IMG/VR virus record: IMGVR_UViG_2713897074_000004
Span: 1 to 5,813 of that record
DNA from: a virus
Lineage: Duplodnaviria; Heunggongvirae; Uroviricota; Caudoviricetes
DNA length: 5,813 nucleotides
Strand: one strand, 5' to 3'
Made by a program: the position numbers and the translations under genes. The notes beneath the pieces were generated by a model, which saw only the letters and a program-made list of their open reading frames with translations, was not told the origin of the DNA and ran no database searches. This document shows positions 1 to 5,813 of the stretch, piece by piece (positions within the stretch are counted from its first letter, which is position 1; the number at the start of each line of letters is the position of its first letter).

Positions 1-62
1 CCGTTACGCACCACCCCGTCAGTAGCTGAACAGGAGGGACAGCTGATAGAAACAGAAGCCAC
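1..62 (-). CDS. insA: insA 5' fragment (IS1 InsA N-terminus), cut by window edge
   Basis: Minus strand from GTG at 62 translates MASVSISCPSCSATDGVVRN, the CxxC zinc-finger N-terminus of IS1 InsA; runs off the window. Confidence 0.7.
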   Translation of the reverse strand, partial: MASVSISCPSCSATDGVVRN

Positions 63-117
63 TGGAGCACCTCAAAAACACCATCATACACTAAATCAGT
101 AAGTTGGCAGCATCACC
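1..117 (-). mobile_element. IS1: IS1 terminal fragment: reverse complement of the first 117 bp of IS1 (insA-proximal end), element body lies left of the window
   Basis: Reverse complement of 1-117 reads GGTGATGCTGCCAACTTACTGATTTAGTGTATGATGG...GGGGTGGTGCGTAACGG, which I recognise as the IS1 left end including the insA start; exact inverted copy of 5697-5813. Identity from memory, not searched. Confidence 0.9.
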
Positions 118-153
118 GGTTTATCGGCGGCCCAGCGTTATGGCGGTATTTTT

Positions 154-2049
154 GTGCCTCCGCATATTGCGGTCATCCATCAATATATGCGTGAGATGAT
201 GGCAGGCGGCGGCAAAATGATCCTCGGGTCAGACAGCCACACCCGTTACGGTGCATTAGGGACAATGGCAGTCGGTGAGGGCGGCGGTGAGTTGGTAAAA
301 CAGCTGCTTAATGACACCTGGGATATCGACTATCCGGGCGTGGTTGCGGTGCATCTGACCGGAAAACCTGCGCCGTATGTGGGGCCACAGGATGTGGCGC
401 TGGCTATCATTGGCGCGGTGTTCAAAAACGGTTACGTCAAAAACAAAGTCATGGAGTTCGTTGGACCGGGCGTTAGCGCGCTCTCTACCGATTTCCGTAA
501 CAGCGTTGACGTGATGACCACTGAAACGACCTGTTTAAGTTCTGTCTGGCAAACCGATGAAGAAGTCCATAACTGGCTGGCGCTGCACGGTCGCGGCCAG
601 GATTACTGCCAGCTTAACCCTCAACCGATGGCGTACTACGATGGCTGCATCAGCGTTGATTTAAGCGCCATCAAACCAATGATTGCGCTGCCGTTCCACC
701 CGAGCAACGTGTATGAAATCGACACACTGCACCAGAACCTGACCGACATTCTGCGTGAGATTGAAATTGAGTCCGAACGCGTGGCGCACGGTAAAGCCAA
801 ACTCTCGCTGCTGGATAAAGTGGAAAATGGTCGCCTGAAAGTGCAGCAGGGGATTATCGCGGGCTGTTCTGGCGGTAACTACGAAAACGTCATCGCGGCG
901 GCGAATGCACTGCGCGGTCAATCCTGTGGCAATGACACCTTCTCGCTGGCAGTTTACCCGTCATCACAGCCGGTGTTTATGGATCTCGCCAAAAAAGGTG
1001 TGGTAGCAGATTTGATTGGCGCAGGCGCAATCATCAGAACCGCGTTCTGCGGCCCATGCTTTGGCGCGGGCGATACGCCAATCAACAACGGTTTGAGTAT
1101 TCGCCACACCACGCGTAACTTCCCGAACCGCGAAGGCTCTAAGCCAGCTAATGGGCAGATGTCAGCGGTGGCGTTGATGGACGCTCGTTCTATCGCTGCG
1201 ACTGCGGCAAACGGTGGCTATTTAACCTCTGCCAGCGAACTTGATTGCTGGGACAACGTGCCGGAGTACGCCTTCGATGTAACGCCGTATAAAAACCGTG
1301 TTTATCAGGGCTTTGTGAAAGGGGCAACTCAGCAACCGCTGATTTACGGGCCGAACATTAAAGACTGGCCGGAATTGGGTGCGCTGACTGACAATATCGT
1401 CCTGAAAGTGTGCTCGAAGATCCTCGACGAAGTGACCACCACCGACGAACTGATTCCTTCCGGTGAAACCTCTTCTTATCGTTCAAATCCGATTGGTCTG
1501 GCGGAGTTTACCCTGTCTCGCCGCGATCCCGGTTATGTTAGCAGAAGTAAAGCGACTGCTGAGCTGGAAAATCAGCGTCTGGCGGGGAATGTCAGCGAGC
1601 TGACAGAGGTGTTTGCGCGCATTAAGCAGATTGCTGGTCAGGAGCATATTGATCCGCTGCAAACTGAAATTGGCAGCATGGTCTATGCGGTGAAACCAGG
1701 CGATGGTTCTGCGCGTGAACAGGCGGCGAGCTGCCAGCGTGTGATTGGCGGTCTGGCGAATATTGCCGAGGAGTACGCGACTAAACGCTATCGTTCTAAC
1801 GTCATCAACTGGGGGATGTTACCGCTGCAAATGGCGGAAGTACCAACCTTTGAAGTGGGGGATTACATTTACATCCCTAGCATTAAAGCGGCGCTGGATA
1901 ATCCGGGTACGACGTTTAAAGGTTATGTGATCCATGAAGATGCGCCGGTAACGGAAATTACGCTCTATATGGAAAGTCTGACTGCTGAAGAGCGCGAGAT
2001 TATCAAGGCGGGTAGTTTGATTAACTTCAATAAAAACCGTCAGATGTAA
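154..2049 (+). CDS. ybhJ: Aconitase-family hydratase YbhJ, 5'-truncated (C-terminal ~640 codons only); functionally a pseudogene remnant
   Basis: Frame is open from 103 with no ATG/GTG/TTG before GTG at 154; translation carries aconitase-family signatures (GSDSHT, CGPC cluster ligands, swivel-domain GDGSARE). K-12 YbhJ is about 753 aa by recall, so roughly 110 N-terminal codons are replaced by IS1 at 117/118. Gene order ybhJ-ybhC-att lambda matches E. coli. Confidence 0.8.
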
Positions 2050-2065
2050 AAAGCGCCATGTGAAT

Positions 2066-2268
2066 GTAGGTCGCATTCGGCACTTATTGTCGGATGCGAT
2101 GCTTGCGCATCTTATCCGACCTACGAATCGCATCGAATCTGTAGGCCAGATAAGGCATTTTCGCAGCATCCGGCACTTATTGTCGGATGCGATGCTTGCG
2201 CATCTTATCCGACCTACAAATCGCATCGAACCGTAGACCGGATAAGGCGTTTACGCCGCATCCGGCAA
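2066..2268. repeat. BIME: 4-5 REP palindromes in alternating orientation, including a ~62-bp near-identical direct repeat (2076-2137 and 2169-2230)
   Basis: REP-like units GTCGGATGCGATGCTTGCGCATCTTATCCGACCTAC (x2, + orientation) alternate with inverted units TGTAGGCCAGATAAGGCATTTTCGCAGCATCCGGCA and CCGTAGACCGGATAAGGCGTTTACGCCGCATCCGGCA; sits between the convergent 3' ends of ybhJ and ybhC. Confidence 0.75.
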
Positions 2269-2282
2269 ATAGTTAATTGCTC

Positions 2283-3566
2283 TTACTTCTTCGCCTCTGC
2301 AACCACTTTACTACCCACGCCGCGGTTATTGTATTCCCACATGCGGTTGTAGTTAGTGTCATTCAGATTGCGCTGTATTTCGTCGTTATCATCTACGCTG
2401 CCGGTATTACCCGCAAACGGACGATTAGAGATCACCGCATCGGCCCACGGTTTAGCCGTGTTAAAACCTTCGTTGATGGCGCTATCACGGATCACCACCT
2501 GACCGTTGGTATTGGCATCAACATCCAGCGAGCGGCCCAGTTGCGCCACACCATCACCGAAAGCATTGAAACGGCTGTTTACGGCGAGGAAACCGTAGTA
2601 AATGTTGGACAGCGTAGCCGGTGCAAACACATACGCTTCTTGCTGAGTACGTGAGTTCACCACGCGGAATTCGGTGTTATCGAACACCACTGCGCCGCGA
2701 CCAGAAACGATATCCACATCCCCTTCAATGTAGCTGTTGGTCACCAGCGTACGCGGCTGACGATTCGTTTCCAGACGGTTCTGTACACCGCTGTTGGTGA
2801 CAAAGAAGGTGTTCTGACGACCGAGAATGTTAACGTTGTTAATCTGTACCTGGTCACCATCAGTACGCAGTGCCACCGCCGGATGGTTACCTGCATCTAC
2901 GCTATCGCCCAGCGTGTTTTCGATGGTCAGATTTTGCAGTTGCAGGCCATTGTTTTGTGACCAGAAGACCGCAGAGCAGAGAACACCGATACTGTCGCTG
3001 CGTTTGCTCTGGCAGCTATCGTACATATACCACGCTGGTTTACCTGGCATATATTTGCCGCGCGGGTTGACGTCGTGACGCCAGTCGGCAGGGCTCATGC
3101 CACCATCAAGGGAAAGCCCAATCTTCACATCAATCGGTTTTTCACCTGTACCGTACAGAGTAATTCCACCCGGAGCGGCAGGGACATATACCGTTCCCTG
3201 ATACTCACCAGGCATCACGGCAATATACTGGCGCTTGTTGGTACGCTTGATAATTGCCGCATCTACCGCCGCCTGAATCGTGGTATGCGTTACACCTTGA
3301 GTGCCCGCCGGGCCGACAACAAAGTCAGGTTGCGCAGGCAGGGTAATCGGGGAAGGATTCCACGCTGCAGCACCTGGTGTCAGGGATGCAAAATAGTGTT
3401 GAGCATCGAAATTCTGCGCTTCTTTTGCCGATAGAATCGGGCGAGAAGAGGTACCAGGCGCGGTTTGATCAGAAGGACGTTGATCGGGCGGGGTTGAGCT
3501 ACAGGCGGTCAGCGTCACGCCAAAAGCCAATGCCAGCGCCAGACGGGAAACTGAAAATGTGTTCAC
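2283..3566 (-). CDS. ybhC: YbhC, pectinesterase-family outer-membrane lipoprotein (annotated acyl-CoA thioesterase)
   Basis: 427-aa ORF with lipoprotein signal peptide and lipobox (MNTFSVSRLALALAFGVTLTAC|SS); GTG start at 3566 preceded by GGAG; sequence and position next to att lambda match E. coli ybhC by recall. Confidence 0.85.
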   Translation of the reverse strand: MNTFSVSRLALALAFGVTLTACSSTPPDQRPSDQTAPGTSSRPILSAKEAQNFDAQHYFASLTPGAAAWNPSPITLPAQPDFVVGPAGTQGVTHTTIQAAVDAAIIKRTNKRQYIAVMPGEYQGTVYVPAAPGGITLYGTGEKPIDVKIGLSLDGGMSPADWRHDVNPRGKYMPGKPAWYMYDSCQSKRSDSIGVLCSAVFWSQNNGLQLQNLTIENTLGDSVDAGNHPAVALRTDGDQVQINNVNILGRQNTFFVTNSGVQNRLETNRQPRTLVTNSYIEGDVDIVSGRGAVVFDNTEFRVVNSRTQQEAYVFAPATLSNIYYGFLAVNSRFNAFGDGVAQLGRSLDVDANTNGQVVIRDSAINEGFNTAKPWADAVISNRPFAGNTGSVDDNDEIQRNLNDTNYNRMWEYNNRGVGSKVVAEAKK

Positions 3567-3599
3567 AGGTTGCTCCGGGCTATGAAATAGAAAAATGAA

Positions 3600-3705
3600 T
3601 CCGTTGAAGCCTGCTTTTTTATACTAAGTTGGCATTATAAAAAAGCATTGCTTATCAATTTGTTGCAACGAACAGGTCACTATCAGTCAAAATAAAATCA
3701 TTATT
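3600..3705 (+). other. attL: Phage lambda attL (B-O-P'): 15-bp common core 3613-3627, IHF H' site, arm-type Int sites P'1-P'3
   Basis: Bacterial arm ...TTGAAGCCTGC followed by core GCTTTTTTATACTAA and phage arm GTTGGCATTATAAAAAAGCATTGCTTATCAATTTGTTGCAACGAACAGGTCACTATCAGTCAAAATAAAATCATTAT; IHF consensus TATCAATTTGTTG at 3653-3665; arm-type sites AGGTCACTAT, CAGTCAAAAT, AAATCATTAT at about 3675-3705. Confidence 0.85.
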
Positions 3706-4771
3706 TGATTTCAATTTTGTCCCACTCCCTGCCTCTGTCATCACGATACTGTGATGCCATGGTGTCCGACTTATGCCCGAGAAGATGTTGAGCAAACTTA
3801 TCGCTTATCTGCTTCTCATAGAGTCTTGCAGACAAACTGCGCAACTCGTGAAAGGTAGGCGGATCCCCTTCGAAGGAAAGACCTGATGCTTTTCGTGCGC
3901 GCATAAAATACCTTGATACTGTGCCGGATGAAAGCGGTTCGCGACGAGTAGATGCAATTATGGTTTCTCCGCCAAGAATCTCTTTGCATTTATCAAGTGT
4001 TTCCTTCATTGATATTCCGAGAGCATCAACATGCAATACTGTTGGGATGGCAATTTTTACGCCTGTTTTGCTTTGCTCGACATAAAGATATCCATCTACG
4101 ATATCAGACCACTTCATTTCGCATAAATCACCAACTCGTTGCCCGGTAACAACAGCCAGTTCCATTGCAAGTCTGAGCCAACATGGTGATGATTCTGCTG
4201 CTTGATAAATTTTCAGGTATTCGTCAGCCGTAAGTCTTGATCTCCTTACCTCTGATTTTGCTGCGCGAGTGGCAGCGACAGGGTTTGTTGTTATATGGCC
4301 TTCAGCTATTGCCTCTCGGAATGCATCGCTCAGTGTTGATCTGATTAACTTGGCTGACGCCGCCTTGCCCTCGTCTATGTATCCATTGAGCATTGCCGCA
4401 ATTTCTTTTGTGGTGATGTCTTCAAGTGGAGCATCAGGCAGACCCCTCCTTATTGCTTTAATTTTGCTCATGTAATTTATGAGTGTCTTCTGCTTGATTC
4501 CTCTGCTGGCCAGGATTTTTTCGTAGCGATCAAGCCATGAATGTAACGTAACGGAATTATCACTGTTGATTCTCGCTGTCAGAGGCTTGTGTTTGTGTCC
4601 TGAAAATAACTCAATGTTGGCCTGTATAGCTTCAGTGATTGCGATTCGCCTGTCTCTGCCTAATCCAAACTCTTTACCCGTCCTTGGGTCCCTGTAGCAG
4701 TAATATCCATTGTTTCTTATATAAAGGTTAGGGGGTAAATCCCGGCGCTCATGACTTCGCCTTCTTCCCAT
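3701..4771 (-). CDS. int: Lambda integrase Int (tyrosine recombinase), apparently intact
   Basis: 356-aa product MGRRRSHERRDLPPNLYIRNNGYYCYRDPRTGKEFGLGRD... recognised as lambda Int; catalytic signatures present (HELRSLSARLY, LLGHKSDTMASQY with the active-site Tyr); overlaps xis by 23 bp as in lambda. Confidence 0.95.
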   Translation of the reverse strand: MGRRRSHERRDLPPNLYIRNNGYYCYRDPRTGKEFGLGRDRRIAITEAIQANIELFSGHKHKPLTARINSDNSVTLHSWLDRYEKILASRGIKQKTLINYMSKIKAIRRGLPDAPLEDITTKEIAAMLNGYIDEGKAASAKLIRSTLSDAFREAIAEGHITTNPVAATRAAKSEVRRSRLTADEYLKIYQAAESSPCWLRLAMELAVVTGQRVGDLCEMKWSDIVDGYLYVEQSKTGVKIAIPTVLHVDALGISMKETLDKCKEILGGETIIASTRREPLSSGTVSRYFMRARKASGLSFEGDPPTFHELRSLSARLYEKQISDKFAQHLLGHKSDTMASQYRDDRGREWDKIEIK

Positions 4772-4967
4772 TTCTGATCCTCTTCAAAAGGCTACCTGTT
4801 ACTGGTCGATTTAAGTCAACCTTTACCGCTGATTCGTGGAACAGATACTCTCTTCCATCCTTAACCGGAGGAGGGAATATCCTGCACTCGCGTACCCATC
4901 GACGAACTGTTTCAAGGCTTCTTGGGCGTCGCTGGCGTGCGTTCCACTCCTGAAGTGTCAAGTACAT
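4749..4967 (-). CDS. xis: Lambda excisionase Xis
   Basis: 72-aa product MYLTLQEWNARQRRPRSLETVRRWVRECRIFPPPVKDGREYLFHESAVKVDLNRPVTGSLLKRIRNGKKAKS recognised as lambda Xis. Confidence 0.95.
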   Translation of the reverse strand: MYLTLQEWNARQRRPRSLETVRRWVRECRIFPPPVKDGREYLFHESAVKVDLNRPVTGSLLKRIRNGKKAKS

Positions 4968-4995
4968 CGCAAAGTCTCCGCAATTACACGCAAGA
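4950..4995 (-). promoter_or_regulatory. pI: pI region: cII-binding TTGC-N6-TTGC tetrad repeats immediately upstream of and overlapping the xis start (cII-activated int promoter)
   Basis: Minus strand reads TTGCGTGTAATTGCG (TTGC at 4993-4990 and 4983-4980, 6-nt spacer), 13 nt upstream of the xis ATG; matches the lambda pI/cII site as I recall it. Exact -10 and transcription start not determined here. Confidence 0.5.
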
Positions 4996-5014
4996 AAAAA
5001 CCGCCATCAGGCGG
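4995..5014 (-). terminator. Putative weak intrinsic terminator at the orf55 stop (5-bp GC stem, 4-nt loop, 6 U)
   Basis: Minus-strand RNA GCCGCCUGAUGGCGGUUUUUU: stem CCGCC/GGCGG followed by UUUUUU. Short stem; function unverified. Confidence 0.3.
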
Positions 5015-5174
5015 CTTGGTGTTCTTTCAGTTCTTCAATTCGAATATTGGTTACGTCTGCATGTGCTATCTGCGCCCATATCATCCAGTGGTTATAACAG
5101 TCGTTGATGTTCTCTGCTTCGATAACCCTGTTGAATGGCTCTCCATTCCATTCACCTGTGACTCGGAAGTGCAT
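5007..5174 (-). CDS. Small lambda hypothetical protein (orf55-like, 55 aa) between xis and the ea8.5 slot
   Basis: ATG at 5174 preceded by GGAG (7-nt spacer); translates MHFRVTGEWNGEPFNRVIEAENINDCYNHWMIWAQIAHADVTNIRIEELKEHQAA, stop at 5007-5009; below the length cutoff of the supplied ORF track; position matches the small ORF next to xis in lambda (by recall). Confidence 0.6.
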   Translation of the reverse strand: MHFRVTGEWNGEPFNRVIEAENINDCYNHWMIWAQIAHADVTNIRIEELKEHQAA

Positions 5175-5185
5175 TTATCATCTCC

Positions 5186-5212
5186 ATAAAACAAAACTCG
5201 CCGTAGCGAGTT
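5186..5212 (-). terminator. Putative rho-independent terminator downstream of the 142-aa gene (7-bp stem, 4-nt loop, U-rich tail)
   Basis: Minus-strand RNA AACUCGC-UACG-GCGAGUU followed by UUGUUUUAU; lies 46 nt after the stop at 5258 and just before the orf55 RBS. Confidence 0.45.
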
Positions 5213-5257
5213 CAGATATAATTTCCACCAAAGGCAGTAGTTGCTTGATGCTAAGAA

Positions 5258-5686
5258 TTATTCAATATCTATTCCTGTAATATCTTTTATCTTTTTCCTT
5301 GCAAAGCCTTTTGCTAGTGATTTTGAAACACTCATAAGTGTACTAATTCCCTCATCCTTAAAGTTTGTTTTTATAGCTTGCCAGACATCCTTTTGACGTA
5401 AGTCAGCAATAAAATCATGCCCTCTTGCTGTCAACCTCAGTGGTACTTCGATCCAACTATATCCAACACCTTCCCCTAACGCTTTGGACAATATATGACC
5501 GAACCCAGGTTTTCCATCAACCCTGACTATTAATTCGTAGTCACATAATAATCGCATATGGAAAATAAAATCTTGGTCATATCTATTAAAGCCATTATCC
5601 TCTAGTTCACTAAGCATCGTGTCAGGGCCACGAGTTTTTTCGAATGCGATAAGTAGATCTTTTAGATATTGCTGGTCTAATTTCAT
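5258..5686 (-). CDS. Hypothetical protein, 142 aa, unknown function; prophage accessory (moron-like) gene in the slot occupied by ea8.5 in lambda
   Basis: ATG at 5686 preceded by GGAGG with a 5-nt spacer (CACCGGAGGCGGCAATG); product MKLDQQYLKDLLIAFEKTRGPDTMLSELEDNGF...KKIKDITGIDIE; no hydrophobic segment long enough for a transmembrane helix, no signal peptide, one Cys; lower GC than the neighbouring lambda and host genes. The ORF track extends it to a TTG at 5710 inside the IS1 end, which I reject. Confidence 0.7.
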   Translation of the reverse strand: MKLDQQYLKDLLIAFEKTRGPDTMLSELEDNGFNRYDQDFIFHMRLLCDYELIVRVDGKPGFGHILSKALGEGVGYSWIEVPLRLTARGHDFIADLRQKDVWQAIKTNFKDEGISTLMSVSKSLAKGFARKKIKDITGIDIE

Positions 5687-5696
5687 TGCCGCCTCC

Positions 5697-5813
5697 GGTG
5701 ATGCTGCCAACTTACTGATTTAGTGTATGATGGTGTTTTTGAGGTGCTCCAGTGGCTTCTGTTTCTATCAGCTGTCCCTCCTGTTCAGCTACTGACGGGG
5801 TGGTGCGTAACGG
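5697..5813 (+). mobile_element. IS1: IS1 terminal fragment: first 117 bp of IS1 (insA-proximal end), element body continues right of the window
   Basis: GGTGATGCTGCCAACTTACTGATTTAGTGTATGATGGTGTTTTTGAGGTGCTCCAGTGGCTTCTGTTTCTATCAGCTGTCCCTCCTGTTCAGCTACTGACGGGGTGGTGCGTAACGG recognised as the IS1 end; exact inverted copy of 1-117. Confidence 0.9.
5752..5813 (+). CDS. insA: insA 5' fragment (IS1 InsA N-terminus), cut by window edge
   Basis: GTG at 5752 then MASVSISCPSCSATDGVVRN...; runs off the window. Confidence 0.7.
   Translation, partial: MASVSISCPSCSATDGVVRN

Follow-up and report, generated by a model that had tools for sequence, protein, structure and literature searches.

When an insertion sequence ends only a few nucleotides in front of an intact gene, it has to be asked whether that gene was silenced, brought under a new promoter or simply left behind as its surroundings were lost. 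The question is raised by a gene of the DUF2513 family in a stretch of viral DNA (Caudoviricetes; IMG/VR record IMGVR_UViG_2713897074_000004, positions 1 to 5,813), in which one end of IS1 lies directly upstream of the start codon. The whole stretch of 5,813 nucleotides is called the window below. An initial annotation, made from the letters and reading frames of the window, saw here a gene severed from its native upstream region. Here, we describe what the IS1 end is, what it replaced and what this would mean for transcription of the gene.

Between ybhC and ybhB, at the classical attachment site of phage lambda, sits a lambda-like prophage of which the window covers the left arm (Table 1). 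The neighbouring genes int, xis and orf55 are annotated as lambda-type, and the attachment-site core matches that of lambda exactly. In addition, the intergenic region between ybhJ and ybhC holds, at 2144-2214, a match to naRNA4, a REP-derived nucleoid-associated RNA, with an Rfam score barely above the gathering threshold (60.7 vs 59.5 bits). A piece of IS1 lies at each end of the window, and the left ends of both pieces face the intervening 5.6-kb segment. As a single contiguous piece, the ybhJ-IS1 junction was absent from all 5,426 complete genomes searched; several genomes carry IS1 elsewhere within or near ybhJ.

Table 1. Features of the window (window coordinates; L001 is the corresponding locus of strain TW10598)
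Feature	Position	Strand	Remarks
Second IS1 IRL end	1..117	-	exactly 117 bp; interrupts ybhJ; inverted relative to the IS1 at 5697
ybhJ	left part of window		truncated E. coli gene; IS1 interrupts at 117/118
ybhC	2283-3566	-	E. coli gene; REP element between ybhJ and ybhC
Lambda attachment-site core (attL), GCTTTTTTATACTAA	3613..3627	+	between ybhC and int; exact match, 0 expected by chance
int	3701..4771	-	lambda-type tyrosine integrase, 356 aa, intact; RefSeq annotation
xis	4749..4967	-	excisionase; RefSeq annotation
orf55	5007..5174	-	55-aa phage ORF, phrog_676; operon shared with the DUF2513 gene
DUF2513 gene	5258..5686	-	142 aa, intact; accessory gene of the phage leftward early operon
9 bp abutting the IRL, GCCGCCTCC	5688..5696	.	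holds Shine-Dalgarno GGAGG (5696-5692, minus strand)
IS1, first 117 bp	5697..5813	+	IRL at 5697-5719; body runs past the window end
Promoter-like site for insA, inward-facing	5704..5731	+	CTGCCA, 16 bp, TATGAT; divergent from the DUF2513 gene; consensus scan, L001 8755-8782 (offset 3051)
TTGGCA, outward-facing -35-like hexamer inside the IRL	5705..5710	-	5/6 match to TTGACA
insA, 5' part	5752..5813	+	GTG start; RefSeq IS1 transposase CDS start, L001 8803

The 23-bp terminal sequence of the left inverted repeat (IRL), GGTGATGCTGCCAACTTACTGAT, matches exactly at 5697-5719, and 5697-5813 is identical at 117 of 117 positions to the first 117 bp of the complete 768-bp IS1 of strain TW10598. The plus strand at 5680-5711 reads atttCATtgccgcctcc followed directly by GGTGATGCTGCCAAC; read on the minus strand across the junction, the sequence is ...TTGGCAGCATCACC followed by GGAGGCGGCA and the ATG. 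The junction is placed to within 1 nt, G5697 being either the first IS1 base or a native base; the native sequence continues CCTCC-GTGACA. The start codon of the DUF2513 gene occupies 5686-5684 and the Shine-Dalgarno sequence GGAGG 5696-5692, with a 5-nt spacer between them, and the IS1 end and the ATG are separated by exactly 10 nt (5687-5696). Thus, the initial annotation, which had placed the IS1 terminus at 5697 and the ATG at 5686, 10 bp apart, with only GGAGG and its spacer left in front of the gene, was correct on each of these points. Within the IRL, the outward-facing TTGGCA overlaps the inward-facing site at 5704-5731, which we take to be the insA promoter. The inverted repeat of IS1 is bound by InsA and by the transposase.

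As judged from RefSeq annotation and a Pfam match, ATG 5686 is the genuine start of the gene: the RefSeq CDS (WP_000762731.1) begins there, and the match to DUF2513 sets in at residue 2, at profile position 1. The next in-frame Met is residue 24. The protein matches PF10711 (DUF2513) with 42.5 bits vs a cutoff of 29.6, over profile positions 1-100 of 100, and falls in phrog_585, a group without an assigned function. A sub-threshold Pfam match to a winged-helix family (E = 0.036) is merely a hint, and the single-sequence AlphaFold model (mean pLDDT 48) is unusable. The PADLOC defence-system models yielded no family at E up to 0.1, a search of solved structures gave a sole match at chance level (E = 0.87), and a literature search on DUF2513 and WP_000762731 found no paper. 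From these comparisons, nothing would point to toxicity of the protein. Only two homologues were found by tblastn against phages. A homologue in a Klebsiella phage (48% identical) is placed elsewhere, between lysis and terminase genes; the family thus behaves as a mobile accessory gene. Phage lambda itself is not among the phage hits, and the gene is not known as a lambda gene.

What normally lies upstream of the gene was to be learned, as the initial annotation had proposed, from intact homologous prophages. An essentially complete prophage occupies the same site in 13KWH46, and over the aligned window DNA its int, xis, orf55 and DUF2513 show 99.9% identity; in the isolated phage Chlobot both the DUF2513 gene and the ORF upstream of it are 100% identical. 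In both, a 112-aa ORF (phrog_536) on the same strand is followed by a 28-bp spacer and then by DUF2513. These genes belong to a leftward early operon that runs from the immunity region, which lies about 6.7 kb from DUF2513, through cIII, kil, gam, bet, exo, accessory genes, the 112-aa ORF, DUF2513 and orf55 to xis and int. By this gene order, DUF2513 lies in the interior of the leftward early operon in the intact phage, and its position, strand and operon context are the same as those of the accessory genes (ea genes, orf55) between xis and exo in the early-left (pL) operon of lambda. The lambda leftward early operon is repressed in lysogens. Since DUF2513 sits inside the corresponding operon in the intact relatives, a lysogen would in any case keep it repressed. 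A consensus scan of the native 1.2 kb upstream, on the gene strand, gives no promoter-like site, and the sole private upstream sequence of the gene in the intact phage would be its ribosome-binding site. Comparison with 13KWH46 and Chlobot therefore bears out that the native upstream DNA is gone, as had been claimed. The further claim that a native promoter or operator went with it stands only in part: the upstream region is indeed severed, but in the intact relatives DUF2513 has no promoter or operator of its own to lose.

The native spacer also holds a perfect 12-bp palindrome, GTGACATGTCAC (13KWH46 locus L002, 8748-8759), which is lost from the window at 5697. It directly follows the stop codon of the 112-aa phrog_536 gene and is kept behind phrog_536 in at least three further, unrelated phage contexts, in which the next gene differs (e.g., the small terminase or a 70-aa ORF). 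A hairpin, a site for protein binding and a boundary between modules are all conceivable roles. The palindrome, together with a TGnTATAAA-like motif, was considered as a private promoter or operator of DUF2513 and rejected, as it goes with the 112-aa gene and no promoter came up in the scan of this region.

IS1 runs past the end of the window, and its far flank is inferred from closed genomes with an identical junction. A 200-bp probe with 100 bp from each side of the junction matches end to end at 100% in at least 22 complete E. coli genomes; the set includes TW10598, B2C, several strains labelled O6:H16 and a series from diarrhoeal stool, and comes from several laboratories. In TW10598, IS1 is complete (768 bp, L001 8748-9515); its terminal sequence is GGTAGTGACTCCAACTTACTGAT, and its transposase is annotated as frameshifted. 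Its left 9-bp flank is GCCGCCTCC and its right 9-bp flank is GGTATTCTC, and comparison of these flanks in the closed genome found no 9-bp target duplication. The 9-bp duplications are perfect in control IS1 copies at the same loci: GGCTACTGC flanks the copy in trkG and AACTCGCCG the one in strain E66. To the right of IS1 in TW10598 lies a lipocalin gene, truncated at its 3' end and on the same strand as DUF2513, followed by ybgA-like, HTH, essD, rrrD and Rz genes, in the order and orientation of the late region of the intact lambdoid prophage of 13KWH46. IS1 thus joins two regions that are distant (about 14 kb apart) but colinear in 13KWH46, and the stretch in between has been lost; it comprises the remainder of the early-left operon, the immunity region, the genes for replication, the nin region and the gene of the late antiterminator. 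Because no target duplication is present and distant parts of the prophage are joined, this is a deletion junction and not an insertion aimed at DUF2513.

Further along the TW10598 remnant (L001 13660-15894), trkG follows directly after the lysis genes and is split by another IS1, which has a 9-bp duplication. We take trkG to be a Rac-prophage gene. Its place after the lysis genes suggests that the remnant is a mosaic of several prophage pieces.

We consider it very probable that the IS1 end is the boundary of an IS1-bounded deletion in a decaying lambda-like prophage and that DUF2513 is a silent or nearly silent passenger beside it. The deletion structure is seen directly in the closed genomes; silence or near-silence is the most likely expression state as judged from what surrounds the gene. 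The deletion joined the left end of IS1 to the base just upstream of the DUF2513 ribosome-binding site and its right end to the truncated lipocalin gene beside the lysis genes, with removal of the intervening 14 kb or so. The route would be either intramolecular transposition of IS1 (adjacent deletion) or recombination between two IS1 copies. An ancestor with a simple IS1 insertion was not found among the genomes searched. As a consequence of such a deletion, DUF2513, orf55, xis and int would have lost their promoter together. IS1 would give no replacement, as its outward TTGGCA has no usable -10, and the sole source of transcription left over would be the truncated lipocalin gene, from which weak read-through would have to cross about 770 nt of untranslated antisense IS1.

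Related strains carry other products of the same kind. At least 26 closed genomes share the right junction, at which IS1 meets the truncated lipocalin gene; six of these genomes (E54, E1739, E1316, E1648, E1654 and E2386) are, among the matches listed, not among the left-junction genomes. In E54 and E1739, the two examined of those six, the left end of IS1 abuts a truncated ybhD, and ybhH to ybhC as well as the int-to-DUF2513 segment are gone. In E1433, it is the DUF2513-IS1 junction that is kept, and the right end of IS1 adjoins a tail-fibre fragment. Variants in which one junction stays in place and the other shifts are the classical mark of adjacent deletions by IS1 (Turlan and Chandler, 1995, and related studies, as reviewed in PMC9330008). 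From the gene content of the E54 group, DUF2513 is evidently dispensable in this lineage. The E54 copy of IS1 at the lipocalin junction (L010 6333-7100) has 13 differences from that of TW10598, all within 262-414, and this patch suggests gene conversion or exchange with another IS1 variant. Adjacent deletions by IS1 are described, in section 5.2.1 of PMC9330008, as leaving the IS without direct repeats. The present case shares with them, and with IS-bounded prophage decay, the retained IS, the lack of direct repeats, one flank fixed and the other variable among relatives, and flanks colinear with an intact reference; there is no essential difference, and recombination between two IS1 copies gives the same product.

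Other IS1 copies have also come close to the gene. In YJ6 (L003 4642-5410), an IS1 variant joins the region upstream of the 112-aa ORF straight to rrrD; a common ancestral IS1 for this junction and that of the enterotoxigenic E. coli (ETEC) strains was considered and rejected, as the YJ6 copy is only 93% identical and points to an independent event. IS1B lies between orf55 and DUF2513 in 1332KP (L004 3810-4577) and NCTC9040. E66 has an extra IS1 downstream of DUF2513, so that two inverted identical copies bracket the gene (L005 3755-5792), the extra one with the 9-bp duplication AACTCGCCG; this arrangement resembles a composite transposon carrying DUF2513 alone. The further IS1 copies near DUF2513 in YJ6, 1332KP and E66 are independent events. 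These strains have up to 40 or more IS1 matches per genome, and several IS1 copies near one gene are therefore unsurprising.

Among the other explanations, rewiring by read-through survives best. Transcription from the lipocalin promoter, or from a weak promoter antisense to IS1, would run on through DUF2513, orf55, xis and int and give low constitutive expression that is absent from an intact lysogen. The arrangement allows for it: the truncated lipocalin gene lies directly upstream of IS1 on the same strand, a promoter-like TTGCCA-18-GATTAT (9/12; L001 9408-9379) is found on that strand inside IS1, the only terminator-like site there is weak, with a 5-bp stem (L001 8888-8874), and the ribosome-binding site and ATG of DUF2513 are intact. 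Some read-through toward DUF2513 from either source is thus possible. Against this stands the length of the untranslated RNA: the truncated lipocalin ORF ends two codons into IS1, and about 770 nt of antisense IS1 RNA follow its stop codon. This RNA is moderately C-rich by a simple scan of C and G content, which makes Rho-dependent termination within it plausible. In either orientation, IS1 has polar effects by way of Rho-dependent termination. Furthermore, a reporter behind the terminal 600 bp of IS1 is not expressed (PMC5526668), and the whole segment has been lost in the sister strains E54 and E1739, which gives no sign that its expression is needed. Since there is no usable hybrid promoter and a long untranslated stretch of IS1 follows the lipocalin gene, little or no expression of DUF2513 is to be expected, and we regard rewiring by read-through as unlikely. 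If read-through expression of the orphaned gene were nevertheless true, it would count as a small example of a promoter captured through a deletion. A bolder version, in which the lipocalin promoter is expressed in the lysogen and the resulting low constitutive level of DUF2513, a putative winged-helix protein, is kept by ETEC O6:H16 as a domesticated regulator or phage-interference factor, seems to us very unlikely.

Still less credence can be given to a simple insertion of IS1 upstream of the start codon, selected because it silenced a costly or toxic prophage gene, which is close to what the initial annotation had suggested in proposing IS-mediated inactivation or rewiring of such a gene. 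The IS1 end does lie very near the start codon with the ORF preserved, and other IS1 copies do occur near DUF2513 in other strains. The closed genomes already contradict it, however: a target duplication is missing, and the sequence on the far side of IS1 belongs to a distant part of the prophage. In intact phages, the gene belongs to an operon running leftward from the immunity region, the lambda counterpart of which is repressed in lysogens, and neither the defence models nor the solved structures gave a match pointing to a toxin. Nearby IS1 copies are to be expected at the numbers found in these genomes. The scar of a deletion, the operon context, the palindrome that belongs with the 112-aa gene, the loss of the gene in sister strains and the lack of any sign of toxicity all speak against the suggestion.

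A productive hybrid promoter, in which TTGGCA in the IRL is combined with a -10 in the flank to drive DUF2513, is scarcely conceivable here. The outward TTGGCA (5710-5705) noticed in the initial annotation is real, with its five matches to TTGACA, and the mechanism is documented for IS1 (PMC8764528, PMC5526668; Prentki, 1986, as cited in PMC9330008). The 5' terminus of IS1 acts as a half-promoter dependent on the adjacent 20 bp (PMC5526668), and activation occurs only with a correctly placed -10 (PMC8764528). The known cases (blaTEM, acrEF and afaA; PMC8764528, PMC5526668) share with this junction an outward -35-like hexamer in the inverted repeat that faces the downstream gene; here, however, no -10 lies at a workable distance, and the flank consists of the ribosome-binding site and the start codon, so that the transcript would start inside the ORF. 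With TTGGCA as the -35, the hexamers at spacings of 15, 16, 17, 18 and 19 bp score 1, 1, 3, 2 and 4 out of 6. The best at 16-18 bp is AATGAA at 5687-5682 (17-bp spacer, 3/6), and TGAAAT at 19 bp reaches 4/6 without an A at position 2; in no candidate at 15-19 bp do A at position 2 and T at position 6 occur together. These hexamers all lie within 5689-5680, overlapping or past the ATG. Because the start would fall inside the ORF, beyond ATG 5686, a transcript from any of them would lack the ribosome-binding site and the start codon. The consensus scan likewise gives no promoter site on the gene strand at the junction. The doubt already expressed in the initial annotation, that a -10 at 17-bp spacing would fall on AATGAA over the start codon, is thus borne out.

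Finally, the probability that the junction arose in assembly, through the mis-joining of a contig at a repeat, and is the chimera that the initial annotation had allowed for, is negligible: both window ends do stop exactly 117 bp into IS1 (1-117 and 5697-5813), a pattern typical of a short-read contig breaking at repeats, but the identical junction in the complete genomes from several laboratories refutes it.

The event at this locus is thus known and ordinary prophage decay and not targeted rewiring of DUF2513, and its importance reaches little beyond annotation. An IS end beside a start codon calls for a search for target duplications and a comparison with intact relatives before regulatory rewiring is read into it. 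As an IS1-bounded deletion with nested products in its relatives, the locus provides a clean example of how one IS1 copy erodes a lambda-like prophage stepwise within one enterotoxigenic E. coli group.
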